DNA from: a bacterium
GTDB lineage: Bacteria > Patescibacteriota > Minisyncoccia > Phycocordibacterales > UBA9973
Direction: 5' to 3'
Assembly (NCBI GenBank): GCA_021824345.1
Contig: JAKAKW010000002.1
Span: forward strand, 22,552 to 86,551
Length of the DNA: 64,000 nt
Part shown: positions 929-18,485 of the stretch, in pieces
Layout: every line of letters starts with the position of its first letter
Position numbering within the stretch: the first letter of the stretch is position 1
Notes under the pieces: model-generated
Database searches by the model: none
Told to the model about the DNA's origin: nothing
The model's input: the letters and a program-made list of their open reading frames with translations, nothing else
Program-made: the position numbers and the translations under genes

Positions 929-1372
929 TCATTCATCCCTTAGAAAATCTTCAATATTATTTAATGTGTTTCTTTCTGTATTTAATAAATCCCTTCCCCA
1001 AACTCTTAAAACTTTCCATCCCTCTCTCCGTAATTTTGCCCTGTTTCTTTTGTCTCGCGCAATATTGCCCTCTATCTTTTCCCGCCAATACTTCTTCGGC
1101 AACCTGTTCTTTTCTTTTGCAAAATTCCTTCCGTGCCAGAAATCTCCGTCTATGAATATGGCTATCTTCTTGCGGGGCAGGGCGATATCAGGGGTTCCAG
1201 GGGCTTTTTTGTAATGCTTTTGGAAATAAATCTTCCTTTTCCTGAGCTCCTTGAATGCTATAAGCTCCGGCCTTGTGTTTTTAGAGCGTATTTTCGACAT
1301 TATTTCGCTCCGCTTCTTTTTTGTGAATACGTCCATCGTTTTTCTGTCTTGCCAATGGCTATTGCCTTGCAT
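929..1372 (-). CDS. vsr: very short patch repair (Vsr) endonuclease
   Basis: 147 aa. Carries the Vsr hallmark FIDGDFWHG plus RSKNTRPE and LRREGWKVLRVW motifs. Transcribed divergently from a C5-MTase. Confidence 0.85.
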   Translation of the reverse strand: MQGNSHWQDRKTMDVFTKKKRSEIMSKIRSKNTRPELIAFKELRKRKIYFQKHYKKAPGTPDIALPRKKIAIFIDGDFWHGRNFAKEKNRLPKKYWREKIEGNIARDKRNRAKLRREGWKVLRVWGRDLLNTERNTLNNIEDFLRDE

Positions 1373-1386
1373 TTCGGTTTTTGTTC

Positions 1387-1407
1387 GGTATAATAGGATT
1401 ATATACC
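1387..1407. promoter_or_regulatory. imperfect palindrome GGTATAATAGGATTATATACC whose two halves each contain a TATAAT-like -10 box for the divergent vsr and MTase promoters; candidate operator for the LexA-like domain
   Basis: Read directly from the 55-bp divergent intergenic region. TATAAT at 1389-1394 on the plus strand and ATTATA at 1398-1403 (TATAAT on the minus strand). ATG of the MTase at 1427. Confidence 0.3.
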
Positions 1408-1426
1408 TAATATTTTTTATCGCAAT

Positions 1427-3010
1427 ATGGAAACGTTAACAAAAAAGCAGAAGCAGGTTCTTGATTTCATAAACGCATACAGGGCGGAGAACGGCATTTC
1501 GCCCACGATCGAGGAAATAAGAAAAGGCCTGAAGCTGAAGGCGGTTTCTACCGTGCACGAGCACGTGAATGCCTTGAAGGAGAAAGGATACATATCCGGC
1601 GAGGAAAATTCTGCAAGAAGCCTTGTTCCTAAAAAGGCGATAAAGACGATAGTTGAAATCCCCATAGTGGGAAGAATAGCCGCGGGCGACCCTATTGAGG
1701 CTATTGAAGACTTTCAGGACACTGTTTCCATATCCGATCCTTCAATAAAAAGCCACAAAGATTATTACGCCTTGAAAGTGGCAGGCGATAGCATGATAGA
1801 AGAGGGAATATTCGACGGAGATATAGTGGTGATAAAAAAGCAGTCTTCGGCGGAAAACGGGCAGACGGTTGTTGCTATCATTGATGATGAAAAAGCCACC
1901 TTGAAGAAGCTATACAGGGAAAAAGACCGATTCAGGCTGCAGCCGGCAAATTCAAGGATGAAGCCTCTTTTTAGGACGGAAGTAGAGGTAAGGGGAGTTG
2001 TGGCGCAAATAATCAGAAACTTGGCTAATGCGCAAAATACCGCAGAGGAGAAAAAGGTGACAACAAGCAAATTCAGGACAATTGATTTATTCGCGGGGAT
2101 AGGAGGAATAAGGATAGGGTTCGAGAAGGCAGGGTTTAATACCGTCTTTGCAAACGATTTCGATGAACAGTGCAAGAAAACCTATGATTTGAATTTTCCT
2201 ACTTCTAAATTGGTGGTGGAAGACATAAGAAAACTAGGAATAGAGGATCTACCTGATTTTGATTTTCTCTTGGGCGGGTTTCCTTGCCAGGCCTTTTCCA
2301 TAGCGGGGTATAGGCAGGGCTTCAAGGATGAAAAGGGAAGAGGAAACTTGTTTTTTGATATTGCCAGGATAATTGAAGCGCGGAAGCCTGAAGGGTTCCT
2401 GTTGGAAAACGTTAAGAATCTTAAAAGCCACGACAATGGCAAGACTTTCAGAGTGATAGAAAAAACCTTGAAAGAATTGGGATATCACATACAAACAAAA
2501 GTTTTGAATACCATGGACTACGGCAATGTTCCGCAGAATAGGGAAAGGATATACATAGTCGGGTTCAAGGATAAAAATCGCGCGGATAGGTTTTCCTTCC
2601 CCGAGCCCGTAAAGCTTAGGAGGAAAGTCACCCATTTATTGGATAAGAAAGTTCCAGAAAAATATTACTATAACGGCAAGCCTCTTTATGAAAAGCTCAA
2701 GCATTTTGTAAAAGAAGAGGGAAAAGTATATCAGTGGAGGCGCCAGTATGTGAGAGAAAATAAGAGCGGAGTATGTCCGACCTTGACGGCGAATATGGGA
2801 ATGGGGGGGCATAATGTGCCCATTATCAAAGACAAGAAAGGAATACGGAAGCTTACTCCCCGGGAGTGCGCCCGCATACAGGGATTCTCCGATGATTACA
2901 AGCTTCCCGAAATTGCGGATTCCGCGCTATATAAGCAATTAGGGAATTCTGTCAGCGTGCCTGTTATAGAAGCAGTAGCCAAGCAGATGAAGAAAGTTCT
3001 AAACGGCTAA
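1427..3010 (+). CDS. fusion protein: full-length LexA (winged-helix domain, Ala-Gly cleavage site, S24 Ser/Lys dyad) fused to a C5-cytosine DNA methyltransferase
   Basis: N-terminal 205 aa aligns with LexA: VGRIAAGDP (cleavage site), GDSM (Ser), KKLYR (Lys), VVAQIIRN. C-terminal domain carries MTase motifs I (DLFAGIGG), IV (GFPCQAFS), VI (ENVKNL) and X (QLGNSVSVPV). Confidence 0.85.
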   Translation: METLTKKQKQVLDFINAYRAENGISPTIEEIRKGLKLKAVSTVHEHVNALKEKGYISGEENSARSLVPKKAIKTIVEIPIVGRIAAGDPIEAIEDFQDTVSISDPSIKSHKDYYALKVAGDSMIEEGIFDGDIVVIKKQSSAENGQTVVAIIDDEKATLKKLYREKDRFRLQPANSRMKPLFRTEVEVRGVVAQIIRNLANAQNTAEEKKVTTSKFRTIDLFAGIGGIRIGFEKAGFNTVFANDFDEQCKKTYDLNFPTSKLVVEDIRKLGIEDLPDFDFLLGGFPCQAFSIAGYRQGFKDEKGRGNLFFDIARIIEARKPEGFLLENVKNLKSHDNGKTFRVIEKTLKELGYHIQTKVLNTMDYGNVPQNRERIYIVGFKDKNRADRFSFPEPVKLRRKVTHLLDKKVPEKYYYNGKPLYEKLKHFVKEEGKVYQWRRQYVRENKSGVCPTLTANMGMGGHNVPIIKDKKGIRKLTPRECARIQGFSDDYKLPEIADSALYKQLGNSVSVPVIEAVAKQMKKVLNG

Positions 3011-3571: not shown

Positions 3572-3618
3572 TGTAATAAAATTTTCATTTACCGCTTTCT
3601 TTGCCCAATTAAATTCCC

Positions 3619-4164: not shown

Positions 4165-4264
4165 TCATCTCTTGTCTCGATTTGTTGATTAGTTTTTGTC
4201 TCCTTCTTAAAGGAGGTAGAAACTAATTAACAAATCTAAACAATCAATATAGGAGAAAATCTAA

Positions 4265-5056: not shown

Positions 5057-5093
5057 AGTGACTTGTTAAATAACTATTTTAGGAGGAACAGAC

Positions 5094-6221
5094 GTGAAAA
5101 GACAACTCAAAAAATTCCAACTAGAAGGTTTTCCATCCAAGAAAGAAATCATTAAAGCAGAAAAAGAAATCTTTCCATTAGTCTTATCTCCTTCCGTGAG
5201 TGCGCTCTGTAATCTGAGGTGTATATACTGTTATACTCGTGCTGGAAAAAAATTACCCGGAGAATTAGATTTTGCAGATCATGCGAAAGCAATCAATGAA
5301 TTTACTGAGCTTAATAGGCACAACAAATACATGATTATTGCAATGATGGGGGAAACTTTTTTGGATAAAAGTCTTTATAATGTAAAGGGAAAAAATATTG
5401 TTGATCCTATTACAAAAAAGAACTTTGTATCCAAGTTTCCCATTATAGATTATGCAAATAGATGCGGTATCAAGGTGGTCTTTTTCACAAACACTACCGT
5501 AATAAATAAAAAGATAGCCGAAGAACTAAAGGGTAAAAATGTTTCCATCATAGGTAAACTTAACACACTCAATCCTAAATTACAGGAAGAAATGACGGGC
5601 GGAAAAGGATTCTTTGTTGAAGAAGAATGGGTAGACTACGAATATTTGGTTGGAGGCAAGAAAAAAAAGATAAAAATCCCGAAAGGTCTTAATGCTTTGA
5701 TTGAAGCAGGATTTAACAAAATCAACGAAAGAGGCAATACAAGTTTAGGAGTTGATATAATCCTTACTGAAAAAAATTACAAGGATGTTCCTAAGGTTGT
5801 AGAATTTTGTCTAGAGAATTTTATTCATCCTGTTTTAGATACAATGCTTCCTATAGGATCAGCGGCAGAAAATTATTTTGAGCTGAAACTAAAAACGGAA
5901 ACAAACAGATGGCTATACAAAAGATTGCTTCAGCTGCTAGGTTCAAATTTTGCCGAGGCGGAATTTACCGGCAATCCATGTTCAACTTTTCGCGCCGGCA
6001 TTGCCTATGATAATTTCGGTAATGTGCGAATGTGTTGCGGAGGTGAAGCTGACGGTATAGGCAATATCAAAAGGGATAGCCTTAAGGATATTTATCAAAA
6101 AATGATTAGATACAAGGGGAATTTCCTGTCTAATTTAAGAGAAAATAAACTTGGCAATGACGTATTTCCTGAATGTCCAGTAGCAAATTATTTTCGAAAA
6201 GAATTAGAGAAAAGTATCTAA
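5094..6221 (+). CDS. radical SAM enzyme with a C-terminal Cys-rich SPASM/twitch-like domain
   Basis: CNLRCIYCY is a CxxxCxxC radical SAM motif near the N-terminus. The C-terminal segment NPCS...MCCGG...ECP carries auxiliary-cluster cysteines. Confidence 0.75.
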   Translation: MKRQLKKFQLEGFPSKKEIIKAEKEIFPLVLSPSVSALCNLRCIYCYTRAGKKLPGELDFADHAKAINEFTELNRHNKYMIIAMMGETFLDKSLYNVKGKNIVDPITKKNFVSKFPIIDYANRCGIKVVFFTNTTVINKKIAEELKGKNVSIIGKLNTLNPKLQEEMTGGKGFFVEEEWVDYEYLVGGKKKKIKIPKGLNALIEAGFNKINERGNTSLGVDIILTEKNYKDVPKVVEFCLENFIHPVLDTMLPIGSAAENYFELKLKTETNRWLYKRLLQLLGSNFAEAEFTGNPCSTFRAGIAYDNFGNVRMCCGGEADGIGNIKRDSLKDIYQKMIRYKGNFLSNLRENKLGNDVFPECPVANYFRKELEKSI

Positions 6222-6239
6222 TTATATTAACTTCTTGAA

Positions 6240-6270
6240 GGCCGGACTGGTAAACAGTCTGGCCTTTTAT
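6240..6270 (+). terminator. rho-independent terminator hairpin GGCCGGACTG-gtaaa-CAGTCTGGCC followed by TTTT
   Basis: Seen directly downstream of the radical SAM gene stop codon. Confidence 0.6.
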
Positions 6271-6343
6271 ATATCTTATCTTGGAGGCGGTTCGATTCCT
6301 GTCTGGTCAAAACCCCTTGCTATTGTTAGCTTAGAGAAAATCC

Positions 6344-6448
6344 GTGTCCCCGGCTCAGGAGATTATTATAACCATCCTATCGGATGGGGAATATATGGGA
6401 AGTTTGTATAATAAACTGTTGTTAATAAAGGAAATGACAGCAATCTGA
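6344..6448 (+). CDS. small ORF family member 2 (34 aa: VSPAQEIIITILSDGEYMGSLYNKLLLIKEMTAI)
   Basis: GTG start preceded by the conserved upstream leader ttgttagcttagagaaaatcc shared with copy 3. Confidence 0.45.
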   Translation: MSPAQEIIITILSDGEYMGSLYNKLLLIKEMTAI

Positions 6449-6494
6449 AAAAGATTAGTCTAAGGCTGTAAGATAGCTGTATAATAATAGAGAG

Positions 6495-7277
6495 ATGAAA
6501 ACAGCAATGCCACAAAAAGTAAAAAAAGTACTTGAAGAACTTTCAAATTTTTTTCAAGAAGTTCTAGGGAGAAATTTGGTTGGAATATATTTACACGGCT
6601 CATTAGCTATGGGGTGTTTTAATCCGGCTTCAAGCGATATAGATATTATTGCAGTTATAAAAGGCAAATTATCTTTACAGGCGAAGAATAAATTGCAGGC
6701 CGGAATTAGATTATCATCAAAAAAGTATCCACAGAACGAGTTTGAGATAAGCGTAGTGAAACAAGATGTATTGCGTAAGTTTAAATATCCTACGCCTTTT
6801 GAATTTCATTTTTCAAAATCATCTAAAAATGTAAGTGCCAAAAACAATACGGGTTACGATAATGACTTGGTTGCCCATTTTGCCATGGTTAAAAAGAGAG
6901 GACTCTGTTTATATGGAAAACCAATTAGGTCAATTTTTCCCAACATACCCAAAAAGTATTTTCTTAAGTCTATAGCGCAGGATGCCAAATGGAGTGCGGA
7001 AAATGTGCGCAAGGCAAAAGAGAAAGGAAAATGTCCTGTACCGACTTATGCCGTATTGAACTTTTGCCGGGCCATTGCTTTCATCAGAAGTAATGAGTTC
7101 TTTTCAAAGAAGGAAGGCGGTGAATGGGGTCTAAAGCATCTACCGAAGAAATATGCGCCAATAATAAAAGAGGCGTTAAAAAAATACAGGAAAAGAAATT
7201 CCGCAAAGACGGTTGATTCCGAACTATTGAAACAGTTTAGCGAATATTCTTGGAATGTAATAAAGAAATATTACTAG
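6495..7277 (+). CDS. AadA/ANT(3'')(9)-like nucleotidyltransferase (NTase fold plus DUF4111-like C-terminal domain)
   Basis: GIYLHGSLAMGCFNPASSDIDIIAV fits the GS...DxD NTase motif. C-terminal LPKKYAPIIKEALKKY resembles the AadA C-terminus. About 260 aa, as in AadA. Confidence 0.6.
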   Translation: MKTAMPQKVKKVLEELSNFFQEVLGRNLVGIYLHGSLAMGCFNPASSDIDIIAVIKGKLSLQAKNKLQAGIRLSSKKYPQNEFEISVVKQDVLRKFKYPTPFEFHFSKSSKNVSAKNNTGYDNDLVAHFAMVKKRGLCLYGKPIRSIFPNIPKKYFLKSIAQDAKWSAENVRKAKEKGKCPVPTYAVLNFCRAIAFIRSNEFFSKKEGGEWGLKHLPKKYAPIIKEALKKYRKRNSAKTVDSELLKQFSEYSWNVIKKYY

Positions 7278-7330
7278 CTCGATCCCGGTCTGGTCAGAAT
7301 ACCTTGCCATTGTTAGCTTAGAGAAAATCC

Positions 7331-7435
7331 GTGTCCCGGCGGGAGGAGTTTATTATAACCATCCTTTCGGATGGGGAATATATGGGGAACTTATATAATA
7401 AATTGTTGTTTATAAATTCCCTGAAAAATTCTTAA
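7331..7435 (+). CDS. small ORF family member 3 (34 aa: VSRREEFIITILSDGEYMGNLYNKLLFINSLKNS)
   Basis: GTG start, same upstream leader as copy 2. Confidence 0.45.
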   Translation: MSRREEFIITILSDGEYMGNLYNKLLFINSLKNS

Positions 7436-7452
7436 ATGGTTTTTAGTAAAAA

Positions 7453-8091
7453 CTATTTGCCTAATTCTTGAGCTGATTTAGCAACTTCATCGTTGAACAT
7501 TCCTTGAATACCTGCTACGTATTTGTTCGCTTCTTCACCCGTAACCTCGGTTGATTCACCTGTGGCAAAATTTACCGCCTTAACAACATACCCGTTATTT
7601 TCGGCAGAAATGTCGTAAATAAATACATTCTCCGGGTCAAGGTCAGCCTCGACTTTCGCATTTTCTTGTAATTTGTCCAATGGTGTGAATGCGTCCATTT
7701 CATTAAAAGCTGATTTCTCACCTTTTATACCCGAGGTTTTATTCAAAACCATTCTGTCAGCTGAGCCATCAAGATTGTTATCGATAAGTAGTCGCCCTCC
7801 ATTCTTTTCTTCACTCATCATCCATTTTGCCTTTCCATTTTCATCATAACCCACGATTAATTTCTGACCATCGGGCGATACCCATTTCTCTACTTTTGTA
7901 TTTCCAATATTGCCTTTCTGGCCTTTCTCTGATATTTGCAAAACAATCTTTTGCTCATTCTGTTTAGCCAGAGCTTTTAGGTCATCTATGTTTTTTCCTC
8001 CTTTTTCTAAAGCTTGGGCAAACCCGGGAAGATTCATAAGTACGGACAATGCTACTACTTTTGATACAGTCTTTATCTTTTCAAAATTCAT
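7453..8091 (-). CDS. secreted hypothetical protein (signal peptide)
   Basis: N-terminal hydrophobic segment ALSVLMNLPGFAQA. Confidence 0.45.
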   Translation of the reverse strand: MNFEKIKTVSKVVALSVLMNLPGFAQALEKGGKNIDDLKALAKQNEQKIVLQISEKGQKGNIGNTKVEKWVSPDGQKLIVGYDENGKAKWMMSEEKNGGRLLIDNNLDGSADRMVLNKTSGIKGEKSAFNEMDAFTPLDKLQENAKVEADLDPENVFIYDISAENNGYVVKAVNFATGESTEVTGEEANKYVAGIQGMFNDEVAKSAQELGK

Positions 8092-8252
8092 AATATTTGC
8101 TAGTTATTCTTAAATTAAGATATGGTGATTGCGACGTTTTATTTATACAATTTTTTTGTAAATGATACAAGATAGCCAAGTGACTAGGACACTTCTAGTT
8201 ATAAGTACCATCTCCTAACGACAAAAGAGCCTTAGTTTATAAGGACGAAAAT

Positions 8253-8351
8253 TTGTCCGCGGTCCAGGAGATTATTATAACCATTCTTTCGGATGGGGAA
8301 TATATGGGGAGCTTGTATAACAAGCTTCTTTTTATTAAGGAAATGAGATAA
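8253..8351 (+). CDS. small ORF family member 4 (32 aa: LSAVQEIIITILSDGEYMGSLYNKLLFIKEMR)
   Basis: TTG start with AGGA 8 nt upstream. Confidence 0.45.
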   Translation: MSAVQEIIITILSDGEYMGSLYNKLLFIKEMR

Positions 8352-8379
8352 AATAAAATATTTTAATTTCCAAGAACCT

Positions 8380-9468
8380 TCATACTGCTTGTTGGCTACC
8401 TTTTATTTTTTCAAACAAAGACCGTAGAAAGTTTAAATACATTTCTAATAATTTTTTATGAATATATTGAAAATCTTCTTTCAAATAAGATTCTGATAAT
8501 TTATTCTCCTTTAATACTTTTGAAAGTTTTTCCTCTGACTGAGGATGTGCGGCAATCCTTATTACTATATTATTCAAGGTCCTTAGCCCGTATAAATCTT
8601 CTCCCACCTTTATTTTTTTGGATAGAAGGTATAGATGCAATAAATTTATACTTCCAGAAAGTTCATTTAACCCATTTATTTCTTTTCTTGCCTGATCTAA
8701 AGAAAATCCATGTTTTGAGAGATCCTCAGCATTTAGATCCTGGATGAACACTCTCAAATCCATGCAACGCCCCATTAATTCTGCTAATTTAGTCGGGCCC
8801 TCAATCTGCGAAATTATTCGTTCAGAGTCTGGAAATAAAGTAAATTTAAATCGATTATCTTCCACAGCTAACAAATTTATTTTTTTTCTTAATTCTGAAA
8901 TCTCTTTTACAATTTCAGTATTGTTGTATTTTTTTTCCTGTTCTTCTTCTTTCTCAATTTCTTTTCTCTTTATATTTTTTGAATTATTCTCTATAAGTTC
9001 TTGCGCACGATCAGAACCTTCCTTTGAAATTTTCTCTTTAATTTTTTCTATATTAGAGCCTTTCCATTTTAAAATTTCTTTTACGAATATAATCTCTGAG
9101 CTTTTACCCTTTATACTTTCGAAATTTTTTGAATAATATTCAAGCTGGTCTTTTGGATTTTCTCTAAGAAGATATTGTAACGATAGAACTCTTATGTCGC
9201 GTCTTACATTTTCGTTTTCAAATATTTCCTTCAAAAGAAAAACAATTTTGTTTAAGGATTTTGTTCTTAACATATATCCTAACAATGTGGTAATAATAGA
9301 TTCATTGGGGTCTGACGAATTCAATTCTTTTAGAGTCAAAGTGAATACTCTATCTGAAATGAAGTGTTCTTCCAAATTGTTTTCATTTAGAAACTCCACA
9401 GCATAAGAAAAATTAATGTCCCTTGTCTCTTGTTTTGAAAGGATTTCGCGGAAAGCCAAGCAGAGCAA
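8380..9468 (-). CDS. hypothetical protein, Lys/Glu-rich coiled-coil
   Basis: 362-aa ORF, AT-rich, no recognised motifs. Confidence 0.35.
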   Translation of the reverse strand: MLCLAFREILSKQETRDINFSYAVEFLNENNLEEHFISDRVFTLTLKELNSSDPNESIITTLLGYMLRTKSLNKIVFLLKEIFENENVRRDIRVLSLQYLLRENPKDQLEYYSKNFESIKGKSSEIIFVKEILKWKGSNIEKIKEKISKEGSDRAQELIENNSKNIKRKEIEKEEEQEKKYNNTEIVKEISELRKKINLLAVEDNRFKFTLFPDSERIISQIEGPTKLAELMGRCMDLRVFIQDLNAEDLSKHGFSLDQARKEINGLNELSGSINLLHLYLLSKKIKVGEDLYGLRTLNNIVIRIAAHPQSEEKLSKVLKENKLSESYLKEDFQYIHKKLLEMYLNFLRSLFEKIKGSQQAV

Positions 9469-9623
9469 TCAAAGTACGAGGTCAGCTGCGGCATCGCAAC
9501 CCCCAACCTGACTCAAGCGGAGAAGAAAGTTGAGAATTCTAGCCAATAAAATTGTAATTACCTACGCAATTTCAAAAAGGGAATACCAATCTAATAATAT
9601 TGATTCAAGACAATCACAAAACT

Positions 9624-11255
9624 TTATTCCATGATTTGGCCATCCCCGTCGTCAAGTTTGAATAAAAATTTCTGATTTTTTTTATCGAATGTAACGACCG
9701 GAAGGAGAACTTCCTCGAAGGTTGTTTTTTTATCTGCCATGAGTTCCCCGCTCAAAATTTTTGGTTTTATATCCTTGTAAAGAAATTCGATCATCTTTTT
9801 TCTTTCCTTACCTACTATACTTACTTCAGTCCCGTTAACCTTAAATCCAATGATATACAAATATACCTTCAAGACTGAAGGGAAAAATCCTTTTACATTA
9901 GACATAAAATCACCATTTATTTTTTCCCAGATTAGACCTATGATGGTTTCTGATAGTTTTTCAAATCCAGAAGTAAGGGAATGGAGTGGAATCGTCTCTC
10001 CCACAGTTTCCATTGCTAATATTCTTATTTTCCCATTGTATTCTTCCTTTACCTGGGCTAGGGATTCAATAAAACCACAAACAGTTTTTGCATAGGCAAA
10101 ATTTATGCTTGAACGGAATTCGTTGTCTTTTTTAACTTCCGTTTCATATATAGAGGCCTGTTTCCTCTTTAATGCTTCTTTATATTCTCGTATATAAGTA
10201 TGACCAAGAAAAAAACTTATTGTCTGGAGCCGAGATACAGCTTCTTTATGTTTGTTTTTTTCTTTACTTGAAAAAGCAAGTGACTGCGAGTAATCATTTA
10301 GTTTATCCAGTCCATTACAGATCTCTCTTCTCATTTCTACTGGACAATTATTTTCCCAATATCCTTTGATAGCATATTCTAAAGATTTTAAATAAACTGC
10401 CAAATATTTTTCATGTAGTCTGTCAAATTTACAGAAACTATAATCATTTCCGAATACACAAAAATTGTCTAGAAAATATGGTTCTGAAAATATTGCCTCA
10501 AAGGCATTAAGGGCTAGGGAAGTACCCCTATAATCAAGTTGACTATAAAAATATGAACTCTCTTCTCTAAACAATAATTCGATAATTCTGTCTAGTCCTA
10601 ATTGAGTATGGGCAGATGTGATTCTATATTTCTTGAATGTAGCTAGCAAATATAAAATAAAATCTATCCTCCCGGTTGCAATATATCTTGCTACTCTCTC
10701 TTCGCTTAAAATTACAGTTGTGACGGCATTGGCATAAATAGCATATTTTTCCTCATCGGAAAGGATATAATCCTTATCTCTTTGAAAAGGTATTGAGCTG
10801 ATACCAGCCAGTGCCTTCGTTATATTTTCAAGGTTGGCTCCCAGAATATCAATACAGACATCGATGTTATCAATTTTAGGTTTAGTTATTTCTCGTAGAA
10901 TAATGTTATAAAACTTTTCTGCACGCCTCTTGTTGAATAGCCCCTTCTTTCTTTTTCCGAAAAGTAGCAAACTTAATGGGGCAAAAATAAAACATAAGTA
11001 TCCTAAGAACTGCCAAAGAAATGTATTGTTCAAAAAAGAAAGGGGTAAACTAAAGAATTTTTGTTGGATAGTGATAGCAATGGCTATAGATACAAGCCCC
11101 CCAACACCCATGTACCATATTAAGTTTCTTTGCCATGAATCTCTAATTTTCAAAACAATGTCCCAAGATTTGTCTTTGAGTTGAAATACGGCAAAAATTA
11201 AACCGAAGGCGGCTACGGCCTCACCTAAAGAAAAATGTATTATGTTATCTGCCAT
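9624..11255 (-). CDS. membrane protein (N-terminal TM helices plus large cytoplasmic domain), last gene of the type I R-M operon
   Basis: Hydrophobic N-terminal 100 aa. Starts 43 bp downstream of the hsdR stop on the same strand. Confidence 0.45.
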   Translation of the reverse strand: MADNIIHFSLGEAVAAFGLIFAVFQLKDKSWDIVLKIRDSWQRNLIWYMGVGGLVSIAIAITIQQKFFSLPLSFLNNTFLWQFLGYLCFIFAPLSLLLFGKRKKGLFNKRRAEKFYNIILREITKPKIDNIDVCIDILGANLENITKALAGISSIPFQRDKDYILSDEEKYAIYANAVTTVILSEERVARYIATGRIDFILYLLATFKKYRITSAHTQLGLDRIIELLFREESSYFYSQLDYRGTSLALNAFEAIFSEPYFLDNFCVFGNDYSFCKFDRLHEKYLAVYLKSLEYAIKGYWENNCPVEMRREICNGLDKLNDYSQSLAFSSKEKNKHKEAVSRLQTISFFLGHTYIREYKEALKRKQASIYETEVKKDNEFRSSINFAYAKTVCGFIESLAQVKEEYNGKIRILAMETVGETIPLHSLTSGFEKLSETIIGLIWEKINGDFMSNVKGFFPSVLKVYLYIIGFKVNGTEVSIVGKERKKMIEFLYKDIKPKILSGELMADKKTTFEEVLLPVVTFDKKNQKFLFKLDDGDGQIME

Positions 11256-11298
11256 TTCTTATAATAAACTCAACTAGAAATATCCTAATAACGAAATG

Positions 11299-13755
11299 TT
11301 AATTCACTAAAGCATATACCTTTTCTTTTAAACCCAGCACGAACCCGAAAAGCCCTCCGGGGTACTTGGCCTGGATGGCTTCCTTTTTTGCGTTCATATT
11401 AGGCAATAGGAATGCTTGCGACGATAGATTTTCCTCACCACTGGTTTTGTACTTCTCCATAATGTCACGAATGGCTTCGCCGATTTCCTTGCCATATTGG
11501 TCAAGTGTTTGAGTATTTGCGCGCATGAATTGTTTAACTCGGTCCTCACGAGTCAGAAGGGGAGCGTCAAATGCTATATGCGCTATAACGTCGAAAGCGT
11601 CACTATCCTCTAAGTTCTCTATGGATTTGATTAGTGGAATGTTCACGTGTTTAGTTTCTAGGTCGGTTATGAGTAGTTCGCGTTTCTCTGGGTCAAGCCA
11701 TATTTTACGGAGTTCATCAGTGGTGTGTACCATTTCGGTTATCCTTTCACCGGAATACTTGCGATACTCTGCTTTTGAGAGCTTGATGCCGTCGAATTCT
11801 ATCTCAACCTCCTCATCAATACTCACCTCAATGCCTTTGACTATAATTTTCTTAGGAGTACCCTTGAGCGGCTTCAGGCGGAATTCATAGGGTGTTTCTG
11901 CTTCTGATTCATGCGGTTCAAGACGCTTGCTCAAATTTTTGTAATCGGCGTGCTCAATTTGTACAGACACTTCACCATTTGTCGGCAAACCGAATATCCT
12001 AAATAGACCGTCGTTGTCGGTTTTACCGATCTTCTCCCAGCGCCCGAGCTTAACTTTCACCACAGCGCTTGCCACATGCTCTTCTGTCTTGTTATTGACC
12101 ACTACACCTGTGATTAGTTTATCAAAAGGCGGTATCGGTTCTTCTGGGGTCGTAGGAGGCACTGGCGGTTGAGGAGCTACGTCCCACTCGTCCAGGAGCC
12201 GGGTAGCGTTTGTAAAATCAATAACGCGGAAGAAACCCTTACCTTCAGAAAGACGAGAACCTCGTCCTAATATCTGTTTAAACAGCACCCGTGAAGCTAT
12301 AGGACGCATAAAGACGATATTTTGTACGTGGGGGATGTCTACCCCAGTAGAAAGCAAATCTACTGTTGTTGCAACGACTGGTAAGGTACGTTCTTTGTCT
12401 CGAAAGGCAGTTAAGTCATCTTTGTCCTCAGCTACAATACGGGTAGCGTAGTCCTCGCGTCCCTTTAGTTCGTTTAATTTATCTTGTACCGCCTGTGCGT
12501 GTGCCATATCAACACAGAAAACGATAGTTTTTCCATAAGGGTTTGTTTCGTCAATCAGCTCAACCACCTTTTTTGCCAGCAGACCTATTTGCTCGGGAAT
12601 AGTGACGGCGCGTTCGTATTCTGATGGTTCGTAGAAATCTTTAATATCTTCTGGTTCAACTTCATCGTCGTATATAATTTCTTCTGCTGCGGCGACGGAG
12701 AGCCCTTTACGGTACAGATTCGTAGTGACCTTGTAGATTTTGTACGGTACGAGATAGCCGTCTTCAATAGCTTGCCCTAGGGAATACTGGAATACCGGTT
12801 CACCGAAGTATTCGTATACGTCAATATTGTCTTCCCGGCGTGGAGTTGCTGTCATGCCGAAGTGTACAGCAGAAGTGAAGTGATCAAGAATTTCTCCCCA
12901 GTCACCAAATCGCGAGCGGTGACATTCATCAATGACAATCAGATCAAAAAAGTCAGCTGGTATCTGCTTGTAGAGATCATTCGCGAAGAGCGTCTGGTAT
13001 GTTGAGAAATAAACGTCCCGGTTGCGATTGAAGTCACCACCTTCTATCTTTGCGCGGCCTTCGCCAAATGGTTCAAAATCTCGGCTATAGGCATCATCGC
13101 GCAGAATTATACGGTCACAAAGAAAAAGGATACGATGCATCGTTTTTGATTTCATCAATTTCCAAACAATTTGAAAGGCAGTGAATGTTTTACCAGTGCC
13201 GGTGGCCATTGTAAGAAGTGTTGTACGATTTCCTTTGATAATGTTTCTAACTACTGCATTGATCGCGGTTTCTTGATATGAACGCGGGCGCTTGGTACCA
13301 CTAATGTGAAGCGGATATTCGAGTGCAGACAACTTAGCATTTTCTAACCCTTTCCATTCTATGTATGCTTTATACATATCTTCAGGCGATAGGAAAGAAG
13401 AAACTGACTCTGGCGCTTTATTTGTGCGCCGATCATATAGGTATGAGGACTTGCCGTTAGATATATAGGCAAATGGTACGTCAAGACGCTCAGCATAATT
13501 TTGCACCTGTTTAATATGTTTCATCAAGTCCTCGTCCTCTGCTTTTGCTTCAAGCACTGCTACTGTAACTTGGTTGAACTGGACCACATAATCAGCAAAG
13601 AGCGAAGTCGGAAGACGTTTATATTCTTCTCCTTCAACGTAAAAACGATCGTCAGAAATAGGGTAGTTGCGAAGAATATATTCCTCTTTCCACCCTGCCT
13701 CGTGTATTTTGGGATCTATTATTTTGACTCTTGTGTCGTCCTCTGAAAAGGTCAT
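11299..13755 (-). CDS. hsdR: type I restriction enzyme R subunit (HsdR) with a C-terminal extension
   Basis: N-terminal PD-(D/E)xK (ADYVV...LEAKA). Helicase motifs TGTGKT and DECH. C-terminal region has a transthyretin/CarbopepD-reg-like segment (TDNDGLFRIFGLPTNGEVSVQ) and an EcoEI_R_C-like tail. Confidence 0.85.
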   Translation of the reverse strand: MTFSEDDTRVKIIDPKIHEAGWKEEYILRNYPISDDRFYVEGEEYKRLPTSLFADYVVQFNQVTVAVLEAKAEDEDLMKHIKQVQNYAERLDVPFAYISNGKSSYLYDRRTNKAPESVSSFLSPEDMYKAYIEWKGLENAKLSALEYPLHISGTKRPRSYQETAINAVVRNIIKGNRTTLLTMATGTGKTFTAFQIVWKLMKSKTMHRILFLCDRIILRDDAYSRDFEPFGEGRAKIEGGDFNRNRDVYFSTYQTLFANDLYKQIPADFFDLIVIDECHRSRFGDWGEILDHFTSAVHFGMTATPRREDNIDVYEYFGEPVFQYSLGQAIEDGYLVPYKIYKVTTNLYRKGLSVAAAEEIIYDDEVEPEDIKDFYEPSEYERAVTIPEQIGLLAKKVVELIDETNPYGKTIVFCVDMAHAQAVQDKLNELKGREDYATRIVAEDKDDLTAFRDKERTLPVVATTVDLLSTGVDIPHVQNIVFMRPIASRVLFKQILGRGSRLSEGKGFFRVIDFTNATRLLDEWDVAPQPPVPPTTPEEPIPPFDKLITGVVVNNKTEEHVASAVVKVKLGRWEKIGKTDNDGLFRIFGLPTNGEVSVQIEHADYKNLSKRLEPHESEAETPYEFRLKPLKGTPKKIIVKGIEVSIDEEVEIEFDGIKLSKAEYRKYSGERITEMVHTTDELRKIWLDPEKRELLITDLETKHVNIPLIKSIENLEDSDAFDVIAHIAFDAPLLTREDRVKQFMRANTQTLDQYGKEIGEAIRDIMEKYKTSGEENLSSQAFLLPNMNAKKEAIQAKYPGGLFGFVLGLKEKVYALVN

Positions 13756-13775
13756 ATTTTTATAAATTGCTATTT

Positions 13776-14456
13776 CTATCCTTCGCTTGGTTTTTTCTTT
13801 GATTCAGCGAGTGCTTTTAATTTTTCTGAACGAGTGCGCCGGTTTTCTCGATCAACATACCAGTCATCCACTAATTGTTCAATTAGGCCAATTAGAAGCT
13901 GGGCTTCTTCTGGCTCAACTTCAATGATGACGTTTATATCTTTTTCCATGTGTGCTCCAATATTCCCTACGCTTCTCACAGCATCAATACTAGTCCATGT
14001 GTCCGGATCAACTTTTTCTTCCAGAGCGTCAATCTCATCTTTCAAACGTGCCATTTTAATGTTCCAGAAGTCGCGTATCATCCCCTGGAGACATCGTCGT
14101 GCAAGCGTAGCCGATGCCTTTGGGCTTAGATCACGTATACGGCACGCTTCGTAGTAATTTTCTTGTATAGGTTTCGGTATATACTCTGGAAGTACTTTTG
14201 CCTCTGACTCCGGGAGTAAGCGCCACGTCTTTAGAGCTGCAGATTTTTTCCATTCACCATATTGCCAATAGGTACCGGTAAGCTCTGCAACAAGTGTTAG
14301 CTGTTGGCATTCTTTGTTAGGGCAAGTGACAGCAGAAATTCCGAAGCCAATATCCCCAAGGGTAGGTTTGGATATATTAATCTTATACCACATCGAATCT
14401 CGATTGGGATCAGTGATTGTTGTATGTCTTCCGCAAAATGGGCAAGTGTAGTTCAT
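13776..14456 (-). CDS. DUF4145-like protein with an N-terminal zinc ribbon, common in type I R-M loci
   Basis: CPFCG...CPNKEC zinc ribbon. Helical C-terminal domain with ARRCLQGMIRD. Confidence 0.5.
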   Translation of the reverse strand: MNYTCPFCGRHTTITDPNRDSMWYKINISKPTLGDIGFGISAVTCPNKECQQLTLVAELTGTYWQYGEWKKSAALKTWRLLPESEAKVLPEYIPKPIQENYYEACRIRDLSPKASATLARRCLQGMIRDFWNIKMARLKDEIDALEEKVDPDTWTSIDAVRSVGNIGAHMEKDINVIIEVEPEEAQLLIGLIEQLVDDWYVDRENRRTRSEKLKALAESKKKPSEG

Positions 14457-14467
14457 GAATAAATTTA

Positions 14468-16735
14468 TTATTTAATAAATGCTTGGCCTAGCACTGATGG
14501 ACGAAACCTAGCAAAATACTTTGCTTGTTTTGAAAACAATTCCCCTAACTCCTTGGACATGTCAAACATCTTGTCCAGAGTGTTTGCAATATACTTTTGT
14601 TTTTCAACGTCAAGTTTTCCATCCTTAAATGGAATTGGTATCTCAACTTTTCCAAGATTAGTGCGGCTAATTCTCTTTCGTGAAGAACCTGTGACCATTT
14701 GGTATACCTGAGATCGTGCATCATCTGAGTTTAGGAAGTAGTTAATGTAACGTGGGTCATAATCTTGTCCCAAGCGGACGATAGTACAATCAACCGCTGT
14801 GAGCATACGATGCCCTGTTTTTGGTACGATACATGATCGTCCGACCGGGTCAGGGAGTCGAGATACAAGAATATCTCCAGGCAAAATCTCTGTACAGTGT
14901 AAGCGCTGAAAAGTTTGCTCATTTACAAAACGCTTAGTTTCCTTATCTCGAAAGTCAATCACTCCTATGTTTCCGGTCTGTACCAGCCAATACCCTTGAG
15001 AAGATTGATCTTTACTCTCAATCCAGTTGCCGTCGTTGAAGAATGTACAAATGTCTGCAAGTGCAAAGCGTTCAACATCAGTATTGGAAAATGTTCTTTC
15101 TAATTCACTCTTAAGTGATGCTAATATTAATTTAATTTCTTTCTGCTTATCCTCTATTTTTATAATGATTTCAGCAGGCGGTAAGAGTACTTCATTCTCA
15201 ACACTACTAGGGTTCTTGGGTGAAATATCCCAGCCGTGCTCCTTTATGGTATCCACTGAAACGATCCACGATGTGTTAGATACCTCGCGACGTTTCCATT
15301 TCTCGAATATATCTTGTAAGTGCTCATCCTGTACCGTCTTCTTTTTCGTAAATTTACCTTGTACTTCGCCGTACCATATTTCCTTTGTCGCGCCTGTTTT
15401 CTCAAAGAAGACAAGGTTCGTTTTTACGCCCGCGCCCATCTGTGAGAATGTACCTTGCGGAAGTGAAATTATAGCGGAAACATTGAATTTTGTTAGAAGT
15501 TCTTCACGAATACGAGCCGTTGCGCCACCTCCGAACATAATGTTTCCTTCAGGTAAAATAATGCCACAGCGCCCTCCATTTTTAAGGCGTTTCATCACAT
15601 ATTGCAACGCAAGACCTTCAGTTGCCCCTATTTGGATAGGATAGTTGTTTTGTACTGCTTTTGATTCTTCCGCACCGAACGGTGGATTGGTAAGAATTAC
15701 ATCAACTTTCTCGCTTTCCGGCATATTATGCACGTCTTCCATGAATGTGTTGGTGCGTGTAAGGTTTGGAACGAGTATGTGATGGAGAATAAGGTTCATC
15801 GTACCTATGAGAAACGGTAGCGGTTTCTTTTCCTGCCCATATAGGGTGGAAGTTTGGAGAGTATTCCATGCACGCACGTCTTTCGCAGAGTTCTCGAACA
15901 TGTGGTTAAAACTCTCAACGAGGAAACCGCCAGAGCCAACAAATGGGTCCAGAACTGTTTCGCCTAACTTTGGGTTGACGATGCTTACCATAAGGCGTAT
16001 AAGCGGTCTTGGACTATAAAACTCTCCGGACCAGCCGCCCTCGCTACCCATCGCCTGCAGTATTTCTTCGTATACCTGTGAGAGCAGGTTTGTGTCTTGA
16101 AAATGATGCTTCTCTATTTTATCTAGCACATCGATAACATCCAACAAGTTGTGAGCAGAACGGACACGATTGCCCGGCAGTTCGCGAAAAATCTCTCCGA
16201 TTTTATCTCGGCGTGGATCTCCTTTCAGTGCTTGAAGATAAGGGAAGAGTTTTTGGTTTACAAAATGCATTAATTCATCCTTATCTTTCCAATCTTTCTT
16301 CGCCCATGCTGACCACTGGTACTCTGCATCGATGACCGGCTTGTACTTACGGCCTTCTGCCTCCTCGAGTTCTTTTAGTTGCGTCTCAACGCCTTCAAAT
16401 ATTTTTAGGAAGAGGATCCACGAGAACTGCTCGATATAATCCTTTGCCCCTACACCATCGTCACGACGAAGAATATCGCAAACATGCTTAATGTCCGCCT
16501 TTGTTAAACTCTCACGTTTAGAAACCATTTCTTTCTCTACTTTATGCGCCATCTCTGGGATTTTACCTTCAACGAATGTTTTTAGATCGCTTGTGGAAAT
16601 GCGCCATGTCCCCCCTACCTTCTTCGCAGATAGTTTTTTATTGTGAATGTAACGGAAAGCAGTCCGCTCACTCACGTGGAGCATATCTGCAACTTCTTCC
16701 AAGGTATAAAGGCGATCAGATGTATCTTTTGTCAT
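14468..16735 (-). CDS. hsdM: type I R-M HsdM N6-adenine methyltransferase fused to a single HsdS target-recognition domain; N-terminal excisionase/MerR-like HTH
   Basis: Motif I DPFVGSGGFL and motif IV NPPFG. C-terminal Methylase_S-like TRD. N-terminal LYTLEEVADMLHVSERTAFRYI HTH. Start probably MTKDTS at 16735; the ORF is open up to 16795. Confidence 0.8.
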   Translation of the reverse strand: MTKDTSDRLYTLEEVADMLHVSERTAFRYIHNKKLSAKKVGGTWRISTSDLKTFVEGKIPEMAHKVEKEMVSKRESLTKADIKHVCDILRRDDGVGAKDYIEQFSWILFLKIFEGVETQLKELEEAEGRKYKPVIDAEYQWSAWAKKDWKDKDELMHFVNQKLFPYLQALKGDPRRDKIGEIFRELPGNRVRSAHNLLDVIDVLDKIEKHHFQDTNLLSQVYEEILQAMGSEGGWSGEFYSPRPLIRLMVSIVNPKLGETVLDPFVGSGGFLVESFNHMFENSAKDVRAWNTLQTSTLYGQEKKPLPFLIGTMNLILHHILVPNLTRTNTFMEDVHNMPESEKVDVILTNPPFGAEESKAVQNNYPIQIGATEGLALQYVMKRLKNGGRCGIILPEGNIMFGGGATARIREELLTKFNVSAIISLPQGTFSQMGAGVKTNLVFFEKTGATKEIWYGEVQGKFTKKKTVQDEHLQDIFEKWKRREVSNTSWIVSVDTIKEHGWDISPKNPSSVENEVLLPPAEIIIKIEDKQKEIKLILASLKSELERTFSNTDVERFALADICTFFNDGNWIESKDQSSQGYWLVQTGNIGVIDFRDKETKRFVNEQTFQRLHCTEILPGDILVSRLPDPVGRSCIVPKTGHRMLTAVDCTIVRLGQDYDPRYINYFLNSDDARSQVYQMVTGSSRKRISRTNLGKVEIPIPFKDGKLDVEKQKYIANTLDKMFDMSKELGELFSKQAKYFARFRPSVLGQAFIK

Positions 16736-16851
16736 GCTGGGTATGATAGTCCAAGATAAATATTTTGTCAAGTTTTGGCAAGTATTGTAATACACTTGCC
16801 ATTTTATGACAACTTTATATTTGACATGTTCCCGTCTTTTTATTTTCTAGA

Positions 16852-17342
16852 TCTCCCGCGCGCGTAGGAAAAATCCGATTTTATCCCAGTACTATTTTTG
16901 CTTTTCTACTTTGTTACTACTAGCTATTTCTTCATTTTACCCCTATTCGGATTGAATTTTGGTTTTCGGGCAGTTTTTTCAGGTAACCCGGGGGTATTTT
17001 TTCTTGCCCTGACAGCTCTAAGACGTTCCCGGCATTCCCTGAGTTTTTATTTTCCCTCACGCGCGCGAGAAAATCCAAATCTATCACAGTCATATTTTCA
17101 GGATTTTTCTTTGTTATCATTAGGTATTTTCCCATTCTACCCCAATTGTGATTGGCAGTGCCGTTTTTTGTCTCTTTTTGGACGAAATCTTTTTTAGTTG
17201 AGTTATAATTTATAGATCACCTCGCGCGCCCGCGTGCGTAGAATAGAAATTTATGAAAGAGCTATTTTTGTGTTTTACGTTGTAATTACTAGATATTTCT
17301 CGTTTTTTGCCTATTTCAATTGAATTCTTGCAATTAAAGAGC
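16852..17342. repeat. three degenerate direct repeats of about 150-200 bp, each beginning with a CGCGCG box in otherwise AT-rich DNA
   Basis: Units begin near 16855, 17060 and 17222 (cgcgcgcgtaggaaaaatcc / cacgcgcgcgagaaaatcc / cgcgcgcccgcgtgcgtagaatagaaa) and share downstream tracts such as ctatttttg...ttactactag. Confidence 0.5.
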
Positions 17343-18281
17343 ATAACCAGGAGTTTTTGCGTAGGCCAACTGCCTCGTTCCGCCGTCCGCGAGCTCGTTC
17401 AGGGGGTGCTTGGTCATCTGCGATCGCAGGTGCTCCGCGCTGGCTGCCAGGTATATCGTGGTGGTCTTTATGTCGCTATGTCCCATCATTTTGGATAGGG
17501 AATAGATGTCGCACCCGCCCTCAAGCATCAGGGTTGCGAAAGTATGTCTCAGCTTGTGGACCGTAAACCTTATCTTCGATACCTCCCGTATTCTGTCTGT
17601 CAACACTTTCAGCCCGGAGTCTGTGAATCCCATGTTGCATCTGGATGACACGAAGAATTCCGGGCACGTTCTCCCTAGTTTTTTCCTTTCTTCCAGGTAT
17701 CTTTTCAGCGTCTGCGCCAGCGTGTAGCTCATCGGTATTATCCTATCCTTACTCCCTTTCCCTTGCCTTACGAAAATGGTCAGGTTTTCCAGGTCCACGT
17801 CCGTAAATTTAAGGTTTAGAAGCTCTTGTTTGCGCAGGCCGGCGAAGATGAAGGTAGAAAAGATCGCATGGTTGCGATAGCGCAGAAACTTTGTCCCATA
17901 AGGATAATTGTAAACAACCTCCAACAGCCGGAGCGCGTCCTGTTTGGTCAGCTTCGGCGGGAGCTTCTTCTCCAGCTTTGGCTTTTCAATGTCTATCACC
18001 GGATTCTTTTCCATGTAGCCCTGCTTTATGCACCAGCGGAAGAATACCAGCAGGGTTTTGTGGTAAATGATGAACGTATTTGTGGACCAGCTGCGCTGGA
18101 TCCGTCCGTAATAGAACAGCTCTCGCACATTCTCGTCCGTGACCTGGCTGATTTCCTTTACGCCGGCGGATCGGCAGTAATAGTTTATGATGCTCTTGTA
18201 TCTTTTAATGGTGGCTTTTGAATAGCCGCGAATGGAATCTGAATAGTCGCAAAATCTTTGCGCTAAAATTTCCATGTCCAT
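17334..18281 (-). CDS. tyrosine site-specific recombinase/integrase (XerC/XerD-like)
   Basis: R...HxLRHTFAT...Y catalytic motifs (HKLRHTFATLML, TTTIYL). Adjacent to tRNA-Lys. Confidence 0.85.
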   Translation of the reverse strand: MDMEILAQRFCDYSDSIRGYSKATIKRYKSIINYYCRSAGVKEISQVTDENVRELFYYGRIQRSWSTNTFIIYHKTLLVFFRWCIKQGYMEKNPVIDIEKPKLEKKLPPKLTKQDALRLLEVVYNYPYGTKFLRYRNHAIFSTFIFAGLRKQELLNLKFTDVDLENLTIFVRQGKGSKDRIIPMSYTLAQTLKRYLEERKKLGRTCPEFFVSSRCNMGFTDSGLKVLTDRIREVSKIRFTVHKLRHTFATLMLEGGCDIYSLSKMMGHSDIKTTTIYLAASAEHLRSQMTKHPLNELADGGTRQLAYAKTPGYAL

Positions 18282-18412
18282 ATGTTTGTTTGGCGTTCGG
18301 CGGAGCGTTTTATCCTGGAAAATTCTTTTTGGCCTCTCGACCTGTTTACTGCGGGAACTGGTCTAGGAAACAGCCCTATTTTCCAAAATACCCTTATTTA
18401 GCTTATATAATG

Positions 18413-18485
18413 TCCGCCCACTCGGGATCGAACCGAGGACCTTCTCCTTAAAAGGGAGCTGCTCTACCATCTGAGCTATGGGCGG
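18413..18485 (-). tRNA. tRNA-Lys (anticodon UUU)
   Basis: Cloverleaf folded by hand from the reverse complement: acceptor CCGCCCA/TGGGCGG, anticodon loop CUUUUAA, T-arm CTCGG-TTCGATC-CCGAG. No encoded CCA. Confidence 0.8.

Follow-up and report, generated by a model that had tools for sequence, protein, structure and literature searches.

A predicted type IB restriction-modification system with a natural HsdM-half-HsdS fusion, a RAZR-like RNase gene and a membrane-anchored α-solenoid protein in a Patescibacteria genome

The 64-kb window analyzed here (positions 22,552 to 86,551 of contig JAKAKW010000002.1, forward strand, from the Patescibacteria assembly GCA_021824345.1) contains on its minus strand (9624..16795) a restriction-modification (R-M) locus of four long, tightly spaced open reading frames (ORFs), with intergenic gaps of 11, 20 and 43 nt. 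In the order of transcription they encode: 1) a fusion of an HTH (helix-turn-helix) domain, an HsdM methyltransferase (MTase) and half an HsdS specificity subunit, with a single target-recognition domain (TRD); 2) a 226-aa DUF4145 protein related to the RAZR/PD-T7-4 family; 3) an HsdR subunit of the EcoAI/FtnUII family (type IB); and 4) a 543-aa membrane-anchored protein (Table 1). A first-pass annotation, made from the letters of the sequence without database searches, had read the locus as an HTH-HsdM-single-TRD fusion gene, a DUF4145 gene, an hsdR and a gene for a membrane protein, and all four ORFs are present with the strand and extents that it gave.

Table 1. Features of the R-M locus and of its upstream flank, in window positions
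Feature	Position	Strand	Remarks
tRNA-Lys(UUU)	18412..18485	-	directly upstream of the integrase; probable island integration site
Tyrosine integrase	17334..18281	-	Pfam Phage_integrase E=3e-29; flanks the R-M locus
Candidate operator	16765..16812	.	imperfect palindrome TTGTCA-N5-TGGCAAGT-N10-ACTTGCCA-AAAC-TTGACA; from inverted-repeat search; overlaps the -35 box
Predicted sigma-70-like promoter	16743..16771	-	TTGACA-17-TATCAT (11/12); consensus match only; ends 7 nt before ATG 16735
HTH_17-HsdM-½HsdS fusion gene	14468..16735	-	755 aa from ATG 16735; mechanical ORF 775 aa from GTG 16795
HTH_17 (excisionase/MerR-like) domain	16565..16711	-	residues 29-77 of the fusion
Single TRD and conserved C-terminal S helix	14471..15079	-	residues 573-775 of the fusion
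RAZR/PD-T7-4-like gene	13776..14456	-	226 aa; Cys4 zinc ribbon and DUF4145 HEPN-like RNase domain
HsdR, EcoAI/FtnUII family (type IB)	11299..13755	-	818 aa; NF046051 and PDB 3h1t match
CarboxypepD_reg-like β-sandwich insert of HsdR	11908..12114	-	residues 548-616; Pro-rich linker before it
543-aa membrane-anchored α-solenoid protein	9624..11255	-	last gene of the locus

The relatives of the fusion protein align from the ATG, so that this codon rather than the GTG of the mechanical ORF is probably its start; residue numbers below are those of the 775-aa form. Pfam searches recover HTH_17 (29-77, E=7e-13), HsdM_N (99-222) and N6_Mtase (235-533, E=1e-56), and a full-length type I MTase model of PADLOC, MTase_I PDLC03021, matches as well (E=3e-131). 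As in type IB systems, the HsdM part is a γ-class N6-adenine MTase with an HsdM_N region and with motif I (DPFVGSGGF, 283) and motif IV (NPPF, 370) both intact. The composition of the chain is evident from its closest relatives, which are 86% identical and encode a 547-aa HTH-HsdM, then a separate 399-aa two-TRD HsdS and an 820-aa HsdR (locus L001): residues 21-567 correspond to the entire 547-aa HTH-HsdM (85.7% identity), a linker of 5 residues follows, and residues 573-775 match TRD2 and the C-terminal conserved helix of that HsdS (E=2e-16). The assignment of the TRD is supported, beside this match, by the PADLOC Specificity_I models (best E=4e-19). An alignment of 23 half-S segments shows the helix EQxRIxxxLxxxF...LRSSxL conserved in all of them, where it aligns to the C-terminal conserved region of a canonical HsdS, i.e. 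the half-S retains the dimerization helix. The separate two-TRD HsdS that gives type IB systems an asymmetric bipartite site is missing from the window, the sole TRD being the one fused to HsdM, and the architecture is that described as Type IMS or M½Sfus, with HsdM and a one-TRD S in a single polypeptide and HsdR as a separate one. Thus, the fusion of HsdM to half an S subunit with an N-terminal HTH, which the first-pass annotation had proposed, is borne out by Pfam, by PADLOC and by alignment to the HsdM and HsdS of a relative.

That annotation had named a frameshift, an assembly artefact or a separate hsdS as observations that would speak against the fusion; none of these was found, in the case of hsdS across the 64-kb window. 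The 7.3-kb locus occurs over its entire length with 100% identity in contigs of four assemblies (the NCBI metagenome-assembled genome (MAG) GCA_027428375.1, one ENA assembly and two Logan runs). The fusion is therefore no assembly error, and this identity combined with the recurrence of the architecture in relatives rules out an artefact or a frameshift as its origin. Named relatives of the genes belong to the Adlerbacteria, Magasanikbacteria, Parcubacteria and other Patescibacteria. An extension of the size of a single TRD (179-218 aa) is seen in 18 of the 120 best relatives of the fusion, a share that is an upper bound as the ranking of best matches favours fusions. One Adlerbacteria protein is 78% identical up to the same junction and continues into an unrelated TRD beyond it. 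At four further loci (L003, L016, L017 and L018) such a fusion is directly followed by an hsdR of 817-819 aa, and hsdS is absent within 7-10 kb. A more distant type IB locus (L109, 85-4482) encodes instead a separate half-size HsdS of 207 aa (E=1.7e-17 to the half-S hidden Markov model (HMM)) between hsdM and hsdR. Full, half and fused forms of S, as predicted from their genes, coexist in this clade. No description of natural M-½S fusions was found in the literature searched, REBASE lying outside that search. Some of the HsdM-½S fusions, such as P0015 (885 aa) and P0022 (864 aa; L017:7001-9595), carry a further C-terminal domain of ~190 aa with the signature …LGxNAxKILKYSxSALARR…, which does not align with a second TRD.

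That the closest relatives, at 86% identity, keep a separate two-TRD hsdS implies that the fusion is the derived state, and it could in principle be a decaying remnant, left by deletion of TRD1 together with a stop codon, in a system that is inactive. However, the catalytic motifs of M and R are all intact, and the same architecture, with different TRDs, is found in relatives whose M cores are 64-84% identical. Its retention while the TRDs differ is a signature of selection for change of specificity and not of decay, and we regard a remnant as very improbable.

The HsdR subunit scores 647.9 bits against the EcoAI/FtnUII equivalog model of NCBIfam (NF046051, cut-off 550) over residues 4-783, and the solved fragment of the Vibrio vulnificus HsdR (PDB 3h1t) matches its residues 2-519 with E=2e-111. 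Pfam detects ResIII/SWI2_SNF2/Helicase_C and, at 663-789, EcoEI_R_C (E=7e-15); the motifs of the nuclease and of the motor are all present (D55, E69-A-K71, GTGKT186, DECH276 and QILGRGSR494). The extra C-terminal domains that had been ascribed to this protein in the first-pass annotation proved to be of two kinds: EcoEI_R_C is the normal tail of the family and no addition, whereas the CarboxypepD_reg-like β-sandwich is real. The CarboxypepD_reg model scores 25.4 bits on this HsdR, below its cut-off of 32.3, and it matches six of eight aligned relatives (best E=2e-11); the assignment as a β-sandwich is based on these Pfam matches in relatives and on alignment, not on structure prediction. The alignment shows a Pro-rich linker and a β-rich block in HsdRs of the Candidate Phyla Radiation (CPR) and of Herpetosiphon, and a shorter acidic linker in a Vibrio HsdR of the EcoAI family; the lineage-specific part of HsdR is this insert alone. 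An EcoAI-like HsdR with the same insert is also encoded on the Herpetosiphon aurantiacus plasmid pHAU02 (L020, 4246-11833), where it is followed by an N-6 MTase, an S subunit and a second N-6 MTase, possibly a type I system with two methylases (M1M2S).

The alternative classification as an intermediate akin to type ISP, also raised in the first-pass annotation, does not hold: with a separate HsdR that exceeds the cut-off of the EcoAI/FtnUII equivalog, the system is a type IB one with a fused M-½S. Type ISP enzymes (LlaGI, LlaBIII) resemble it in that their MTase and a single TRD, C-terminal to it, share one chain, and in their superfamily 2 (SF2) motor, but they unite nuclease, motor, MTase and TRD in one polypeptide and recognize an asymmetric target, whereas here R is a separate 818-aa protein of the EcoAI family and neither a nuclease nor a motor domain is present in the M-S protein. 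Membership in type ISP, type IIG, BREX (PglX) or MADS was ruled out by domain content and sub-threshold scores, which for the MADS models were 93.6 bits against 720 (MAD2), 35.6 against 80 (MAD1) and 29.3 against 400 (MAD5).

A functional interpretation of the fusion can draw on precedents from laboratory constructs. In type I enzymes the C-terminal S helix zips the two TRDs together, and the monomeric γ-MTases lack that helix (PMC3874165). The engineered M½Sfus of Sau CC398-1 was dimeric on elution; its methylation target was the palindrome ACCN5GGT, and with HsdR it restricted DNA (PMC6158711). An M-S fusion of EcoKI was functional, and its authors proposed the name Type IMS for systems in which HsdM is joined to an S with one or two TRDs while HsdR stays separate (PMC3510504). 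Based on these fusions and on the helix conserved in every fused half-S, we infer that two of the fusion polypeptides would dimerize through their S helices into a methyltransferase equivalent to M2S1. Its target would be a symmetric (palindromic) bipartite site, where it would methylate adenine in both strands. Together with two HsdR subunits, the resulting (M-½S)2·R2 enzyme would translocate on, and cut, unmodified DNA. Alternatively, the fusion might be active in monomeric form, with an asymmetric half-site without a gap as its target and one HsdR recruited per copy, in the manner of a split type ISP (LlaGI-like) or IIG-like enzyme, and indeed the order of MTase and TRD in one chain is that of the ISP and IIG enzymes (PMC3874165). 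This is improbable in our view: the dimerization helix that the monomeric γ-MTases lack (PMC3874165) is retained in every fused half-S, the engineered M½Sfus dimerized, and HsdR, a complete subunit of the EcoAI family, exceeds the cut-off of the equivalog and has just a short N-terminal motif of the helicase in common with LlaGI and LlaBIII.

The dimeric type IB enzyme that we favour can be compared with several known systems. It shares with EcoAI, EcoEI and FtnUII the equivalog HsdR with an EcoEI_R_C tail and the γ-class N6-adenine HsdM, but differs from them in that one TRD and an HTH are fused to HsdM in place of a separate two-TRD HsdS, in the gene order M(S)-x-R, and in the HsdR insert that the Vibrio member lacks. 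The engineered EcoKI Type IMS and Sau CC398-1 M½Sfus proteins likewise join HsdM to HsdS, or half of it, and leave HsdR separate (PMC3510504, PMC6158711); however, those are laboratory constructs from type IA and from the S. aureus Sau1 system (CC398-1), whereas the present one is natural, of type IB, known from genes alone, recurrent in a clade of uncultured bacteria, and has gained an HTH. In the "Type 1½" M.AhdI (2M+2S) a single-TRD specificity module is used twice on a symmetric bipartite site (PMC3874165), as is predicted here, but its S is separate and its nuclease is of type IIP, in contrast to the fused S and the translocating-type HsdR of this locus. By its predicted domains the fusion is a natural Type IMS protein in which the S subunit is halved and a controller is joined to the same chain.

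With regard to the controller, the equivalent HTH is a separate gene of 62-82 aa abutting hsdM in L016 and L018, and a Vibrio plasmid operon of the EcoAI family is likewise headed by a small HTH gene; its occurrence as a separate upstream gene at these loci suggests that the HTH is a module for control whose fusion at this locus is incidental. The promoter predicted from consensus is so placed that it may give a near-leaderless transcript. Leaderless transcripts are a feature of C-protein genes in type II R-M systems. A matching geometry of -35, -10 and ATG was recognized by eye in L001, L003 and L018, and a -10-like hexamer ends 6-7 nt before the ATG of the HTH-bearing gene in four loci including the window (16733-16771). 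The palindrome of the candidate operator, TGGCAAG-N12-CTTGCCA, recurs with a diverged spacer in L003, an Adlerbacteria relative, where its distance from the ATG is the same (-66). MTases that repress their own genes through a fused HTH have been described, as has a C protein of a type I system (PMC12707154), and the C proteins and HTH-fused methylases (Ecl18kI, SsoII and EcoRII; the type I C gene of Mycoplasma gallisepticum) resemble this locus in an HTH at the head of the R-M operon, either fused to the MTase or encoded separately, and in a palindrome at the promoter, which is here a candidate operator at a predicted promoter. The Ecl18kI, SsoII and EcoRII fusions, however, are type II m5C MTases with another family of HTH, as opposed to an HTH_17 on a type I HsdM. 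By analogy, it is plausible that the HTH would autoregulate the operon at the palindromic candidate operator over the -35 box, in the way of a C protein or an HTH-fused regulatory methylase.

The gene between the fusion and hsdR had been recognized as a DUF4145 gene from the outset, and it can be further identified as coding for a RAZR/PD-T7-4-like abortive-infection RNase. The protein matches Pfam DUF4145 (E=6e-12), the PADLOC model PD-T7-4 PDLC04109 (E=4e-11, residues 23-199) and PHROG 1305 (E=1e-34). Four cysteines (C5, C8, C45 and C50) and R161-x7-H169 are invariant in 22 relatives, and the family profile detects PDB 9y9c, a solved 24-chain DUF4145 protein, with E=4e-8, the R and H being aligned to the stretch CRIVGNQAVH of that chain. 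PD-T7-4 has been renamed RAZR and consists of a Cys4 zinc ribbon and a divergent HEPN RNase with the catalytic residues R146 and H154; this non-specific RNase assembles from 24 copies on rings of the portal or recombinase proteins of phages and causes infection to abort, and the E. coli protein defends as a single gene that the ring proteins activate directly (PMC13017515). The protein of this locus conforms to RAZR in its model and solved-chain matches, its size (~220 aa), its N-terminal Cys4 zinc ribbon and its C-terminal DUF4145 HEPN-like domain with an R-x7-H motif aligned to R146/H154; it differs in being a distant relative (E=4e-8) that is encoded inside a type I operon rather than standing alone.

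A pattern scan of 185,579 species-representative genomes recovered 369 relatives of the RAZR-like gene. The 80 best of these, all at least 47% identical to the query, come from CPR bacteria, Proteobacteria, Bacteroidota, Acidobacteriota, Firmicutes and an Asgard archaeon MAG, and this distribution of similar sequences implies that the family, which is large and unusually conserved, has spread widely by horizontal transfer under strong constraint. In these 80 loci the upstream neighbour is Methylase_S in 6/70 and N6_Mtase in 3/70 cases, and the downstream neighbour is a HindI-like HsdR in 5/63, while ~85-90% of these close relatives are without an R-M neighbour. The gene is therefore usually autonomous, yet recurrent in the hsdS-hsdR slot of another type I family. 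HEPN genes inside R-M operons have been read as a second line of defence (PMC3710099). Going by its domains, the DUF4145 gene belongs to an abortive-infection family that is already known, and its context, too, is of a known kind; its product would act as a second-line abortive-infection RNase that, like RAZR, is most likely triggered on its own by ring-forming phage proteins.

A tighter coupling is suggested by PrrC of the type IC system EcoprrI, also an HEPN RNase, whose gene occupies the same slot between hsdS and hsdR (PMC3710099): the RAZR-like RNase might be held latent by the type I complex and set free when a phage anti-restriction protein disables that complex. Gaps of 11 and 20 nt on either side of the gene, and the recurrence of its relatives between Methylase_S and HsdR genes, would fit such a guard. 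Against this, the 226-aa protein consists of zinc ribbon and DUF4145 only and has no counterpart of the N-terminal regulatory ABC-ATPase domain of PrrC, which is silenced by its R-M complex; the E. coli RAZR is a single-gene defence with direct activation by phage ring proteins (PMC13017515); and most of the close relatives have no R-M gene beside them. We consider a guard of this type unlikely and hold to a self-triggered RAZR-like RNase.

The product of the last gene of the locus gave no match in Pfam, PADLOC, NCBIfam or PHROGs. It begins with three hydrophobic segments, in keeping with the membrane protein of the first-pass annotation, followed by a KRKK..KRR cluster, so that by the positive-inside rule the remaining 440 residues are probably cytoplasmic. 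The AlphaFold2 (AF2) model, built with 16 homologues, is an all-α solenoid (pLDDT 82, pTM 0.80), for which a fold search against the PDB and the viral BFVD returned only generic ARM/HEAT-like matches with TM values of 0.25 or lower. An exhaustive profile search places the protein in a family of 355 clusters at 50% identity, with similar lengths and no extra domains; no Pfam family was recognized in ten distant members, and no relatives were found in IMG/VR, plasmids or phages. Terminator-like hairpins at 11201-11222 fall inside the 543-aa ORF and hence are not credible terminators, and an apparent conserved 68-nt element downstream of the ORF in this family turned out to be the unaligned end of the ORF itself.

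The neighbourhoods of this family were at first read, from four contexts, as unrelated to R-M, an inference that was revised after a metagenome scan had added 33 loci. A DNA methylase or R-M gene directly adjoins the 543-aa homologue in ~11 of 31 non-redundant loci, the window included. These neighbours are of at least five unrelated kinds (with types I, II and III-like among them) and usually lie upstream on the same strand, at gaps of 8-100 nt. They comprise: 1) an N6_N4 MTase with an MvaI/BcnI restriction endonuclease (L127/L128); 2) an MTase with a MutH-like nuclease (L116); 3) a Mod-like MTase with a ResIII helicase (L112); 4) an MTase with a 467-aa protein without a known family (L107); 5) an MTase alone (L102, L113, L114 and L118); 6) the type IB hsdM/half-hsdS/hsdR operon of L109, from which two small ORFs separate the homologue; and 7) a C5 MTase, here directly downstream (L129). 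In one subclade the R-M partners differ between 543-aa proteins that are 85-90% identical, and the nucleotide similarity of the loci is limited to the ORF and ~25 nt upstream, with otherwise unrelated flanks. Ten neighbours of unknown character, searched against Pfam and PADLOC, yielded one usable match, an AAA(RuvB_N)-HNH protein (L108). At L012 (7429-9779) the first 4 nt of the 543-aa-family gene are shared with a gene for a CYTH-domain protein, and next comes a PIF1 helicase; L014 likewise has a CYTH gene near the homologue, and the cases are too few to judge. The gene thus moves through hypervariable DNA as a module of its own, and markedly tends to adjoin R-M genes.

These contexts leave room for two views of the 543-aa protein. 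It could be a hitchhiking membrane protein of islands, whose R-M neighbours reflect just the abundance of R-M systems in such DNA. In accordance with this, six annotated contexts (the first four and two later ones) are without R-M neighbours and contain integrases, resolvases, a primase-D5 element, CYTH/PIF1 or RhuM instead; the protein has no enzymatic or known defence fold and no PADLOC match; and the G+C content falls at the boundary of its gene, from 41-46% in the R-M genes to ~33% from this gene onward (31-44% for positions 1 to 11000 of the window, 46-53% past 17000). The immediate R-M neighbours in about a third of the non-redundant loci, their unrelated kinds, and the pairing of nearly identical proteins with different R-M systems amid unrelated flanks count against mere hitchhiking, which is nonetheless quite possible, if short of likely. 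The other view, that the family is a hitherto unrecognized accessory partner of R-M systems in general, is one that we advance tentatively and hold to be doubtful. The recurrent adjacency points to a general link of the family with R-M rather than to a specific link with this operon, and the component coupled to the operon that the first-pass annotation had considered is to be seen in that light: its alternative, a membrane protein that sits next to unrelated operons, is true of ~2/3 of the loci, while in ~1/3 the neighbours are other, unrelated R-M systems. In related systems the slot after hsdR is variable and holds RmuC and GmrSD, DUF2130 with a further protein, an OLD-family AAA_15/TOPRIM nuclease, or Trypsin_2 with an HTH (L001, L003, L016 and L018). 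As other defence-type genes take this slot in relatives, a defence-related role of the 543-aa protein is plausible, and it might, though the case is weak, assist in defence or exclusion and so be of advantage beside R-M. If the accessory view is true, the protein might be a membrane-located sensor or effector that comes into play when restriction fails, or might place the R-M enzymes where DNA enters the cells of these ultra-small bacteria.

Upstream of the locus, a tRNA-Lys gene and a tyrosine integrase gene form an arrangement that suggests, as is typical of it, an integrated island. A search of the window for the corresponding attachment (att) repeat found none of at least 13 nt and no copy of the 3' end of the tRNA with up to three mismatches. 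Between the integrase gene and hsdM there are three degenerate copies of a ~100-nt unit (16852-16958, 17053-17158 and 17226-17326) at spacings of 200 and ~170 nt, with 65-82% identity in the matched segments; each opens with a CGCGCG-rich palindrome, and an Rfam search over them gave no match. At the other end of the window a gene on the plus strand (1427..3010) encodes a complete LexA (LexA_DNA_bind 1-64, Peptidase_S24 79-192) whose chain continues into a C5 cytosine DNA methylase (216-523, E=6e-96), an unusual combination of a self-cleaving SOS repressor with a Dcm-type methylase; a gene for the very-short-patch endonuclease Vsr lies divergent to it (929..1372, minus strand).

Taken together, the region is probably part of a variable island linked to tRNA-Lys and an integrase in a Patescibacteria (CPR) genome, in which three elements are stacked: a complete type IB R-M system with a fused M-½S, a RAZR-like RNase and the 543-aa membrane protein. 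Several observations weigh against this reading in one or another of its parts. The Pfam Methylase_S match to the fusion (572-745) is marginal, with E=1.4e-4 and 22.5 bits at a gathering cut-off of 22, and its dimerization and palindromic target are predicted by analogy. Promoter scans found sites to be no more frequent than in shuffled sequence, and the candidate operator is conserved in just two loci and degenerate in L001. The match of the second protein to RAZR spans the HEPN part only, the zinc ribbon being left unaligned by HMMER. Most loci of the 543-aa family have no R-M neighbour, its fold gives no functional clue, and the G+C of its gene (33%), much lower than that of the R-M genes, suggests a separate acquisition. 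Finally, specificity might be added by a separate hsdS of full or half size at another place in the genome, making the fused TRD one of several, as type I systems often have orphan or shufflable hsdS genes and the search covered 64 kb. No other S-like ORF was detected in that window with a custom HMM from the 23 half-S segments (best other match E=0.63), the four other fusion loci have no hsdS in their vicinity, and CPR genomes are small; we consider such an additional subunit distinctly improbable.

At its core the locus is accordingly an ordinary type IB R-M system and no new kind of system; its fused form is unusual but could be predicted on mechanistic grounds. Both this core and the DUF4145 RNase are of known kinds. 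The membrane-protein family is a concrete candidate for a new defence-associated component, and the locus also presents a RAZR-type RNase in the slot that PrrC takes in EcoprrI. As to the fusion, laboratory work had predicted that type I systems could evolve to simpler R-M types via M-S fusion and the loss of one TRD, and the corresponding constructs worked (PMC3510504, PMC6158711). A single type IB clade of uncultured bacteria holds all the stages, with a full S, a separate half-S or a fused M-½S, and with the HTH separate or fused; it includes compact two-gene type I systems with their specificity in a single swappable domain, and offers natural material for testing the M-S fusion model of R-M evolution.

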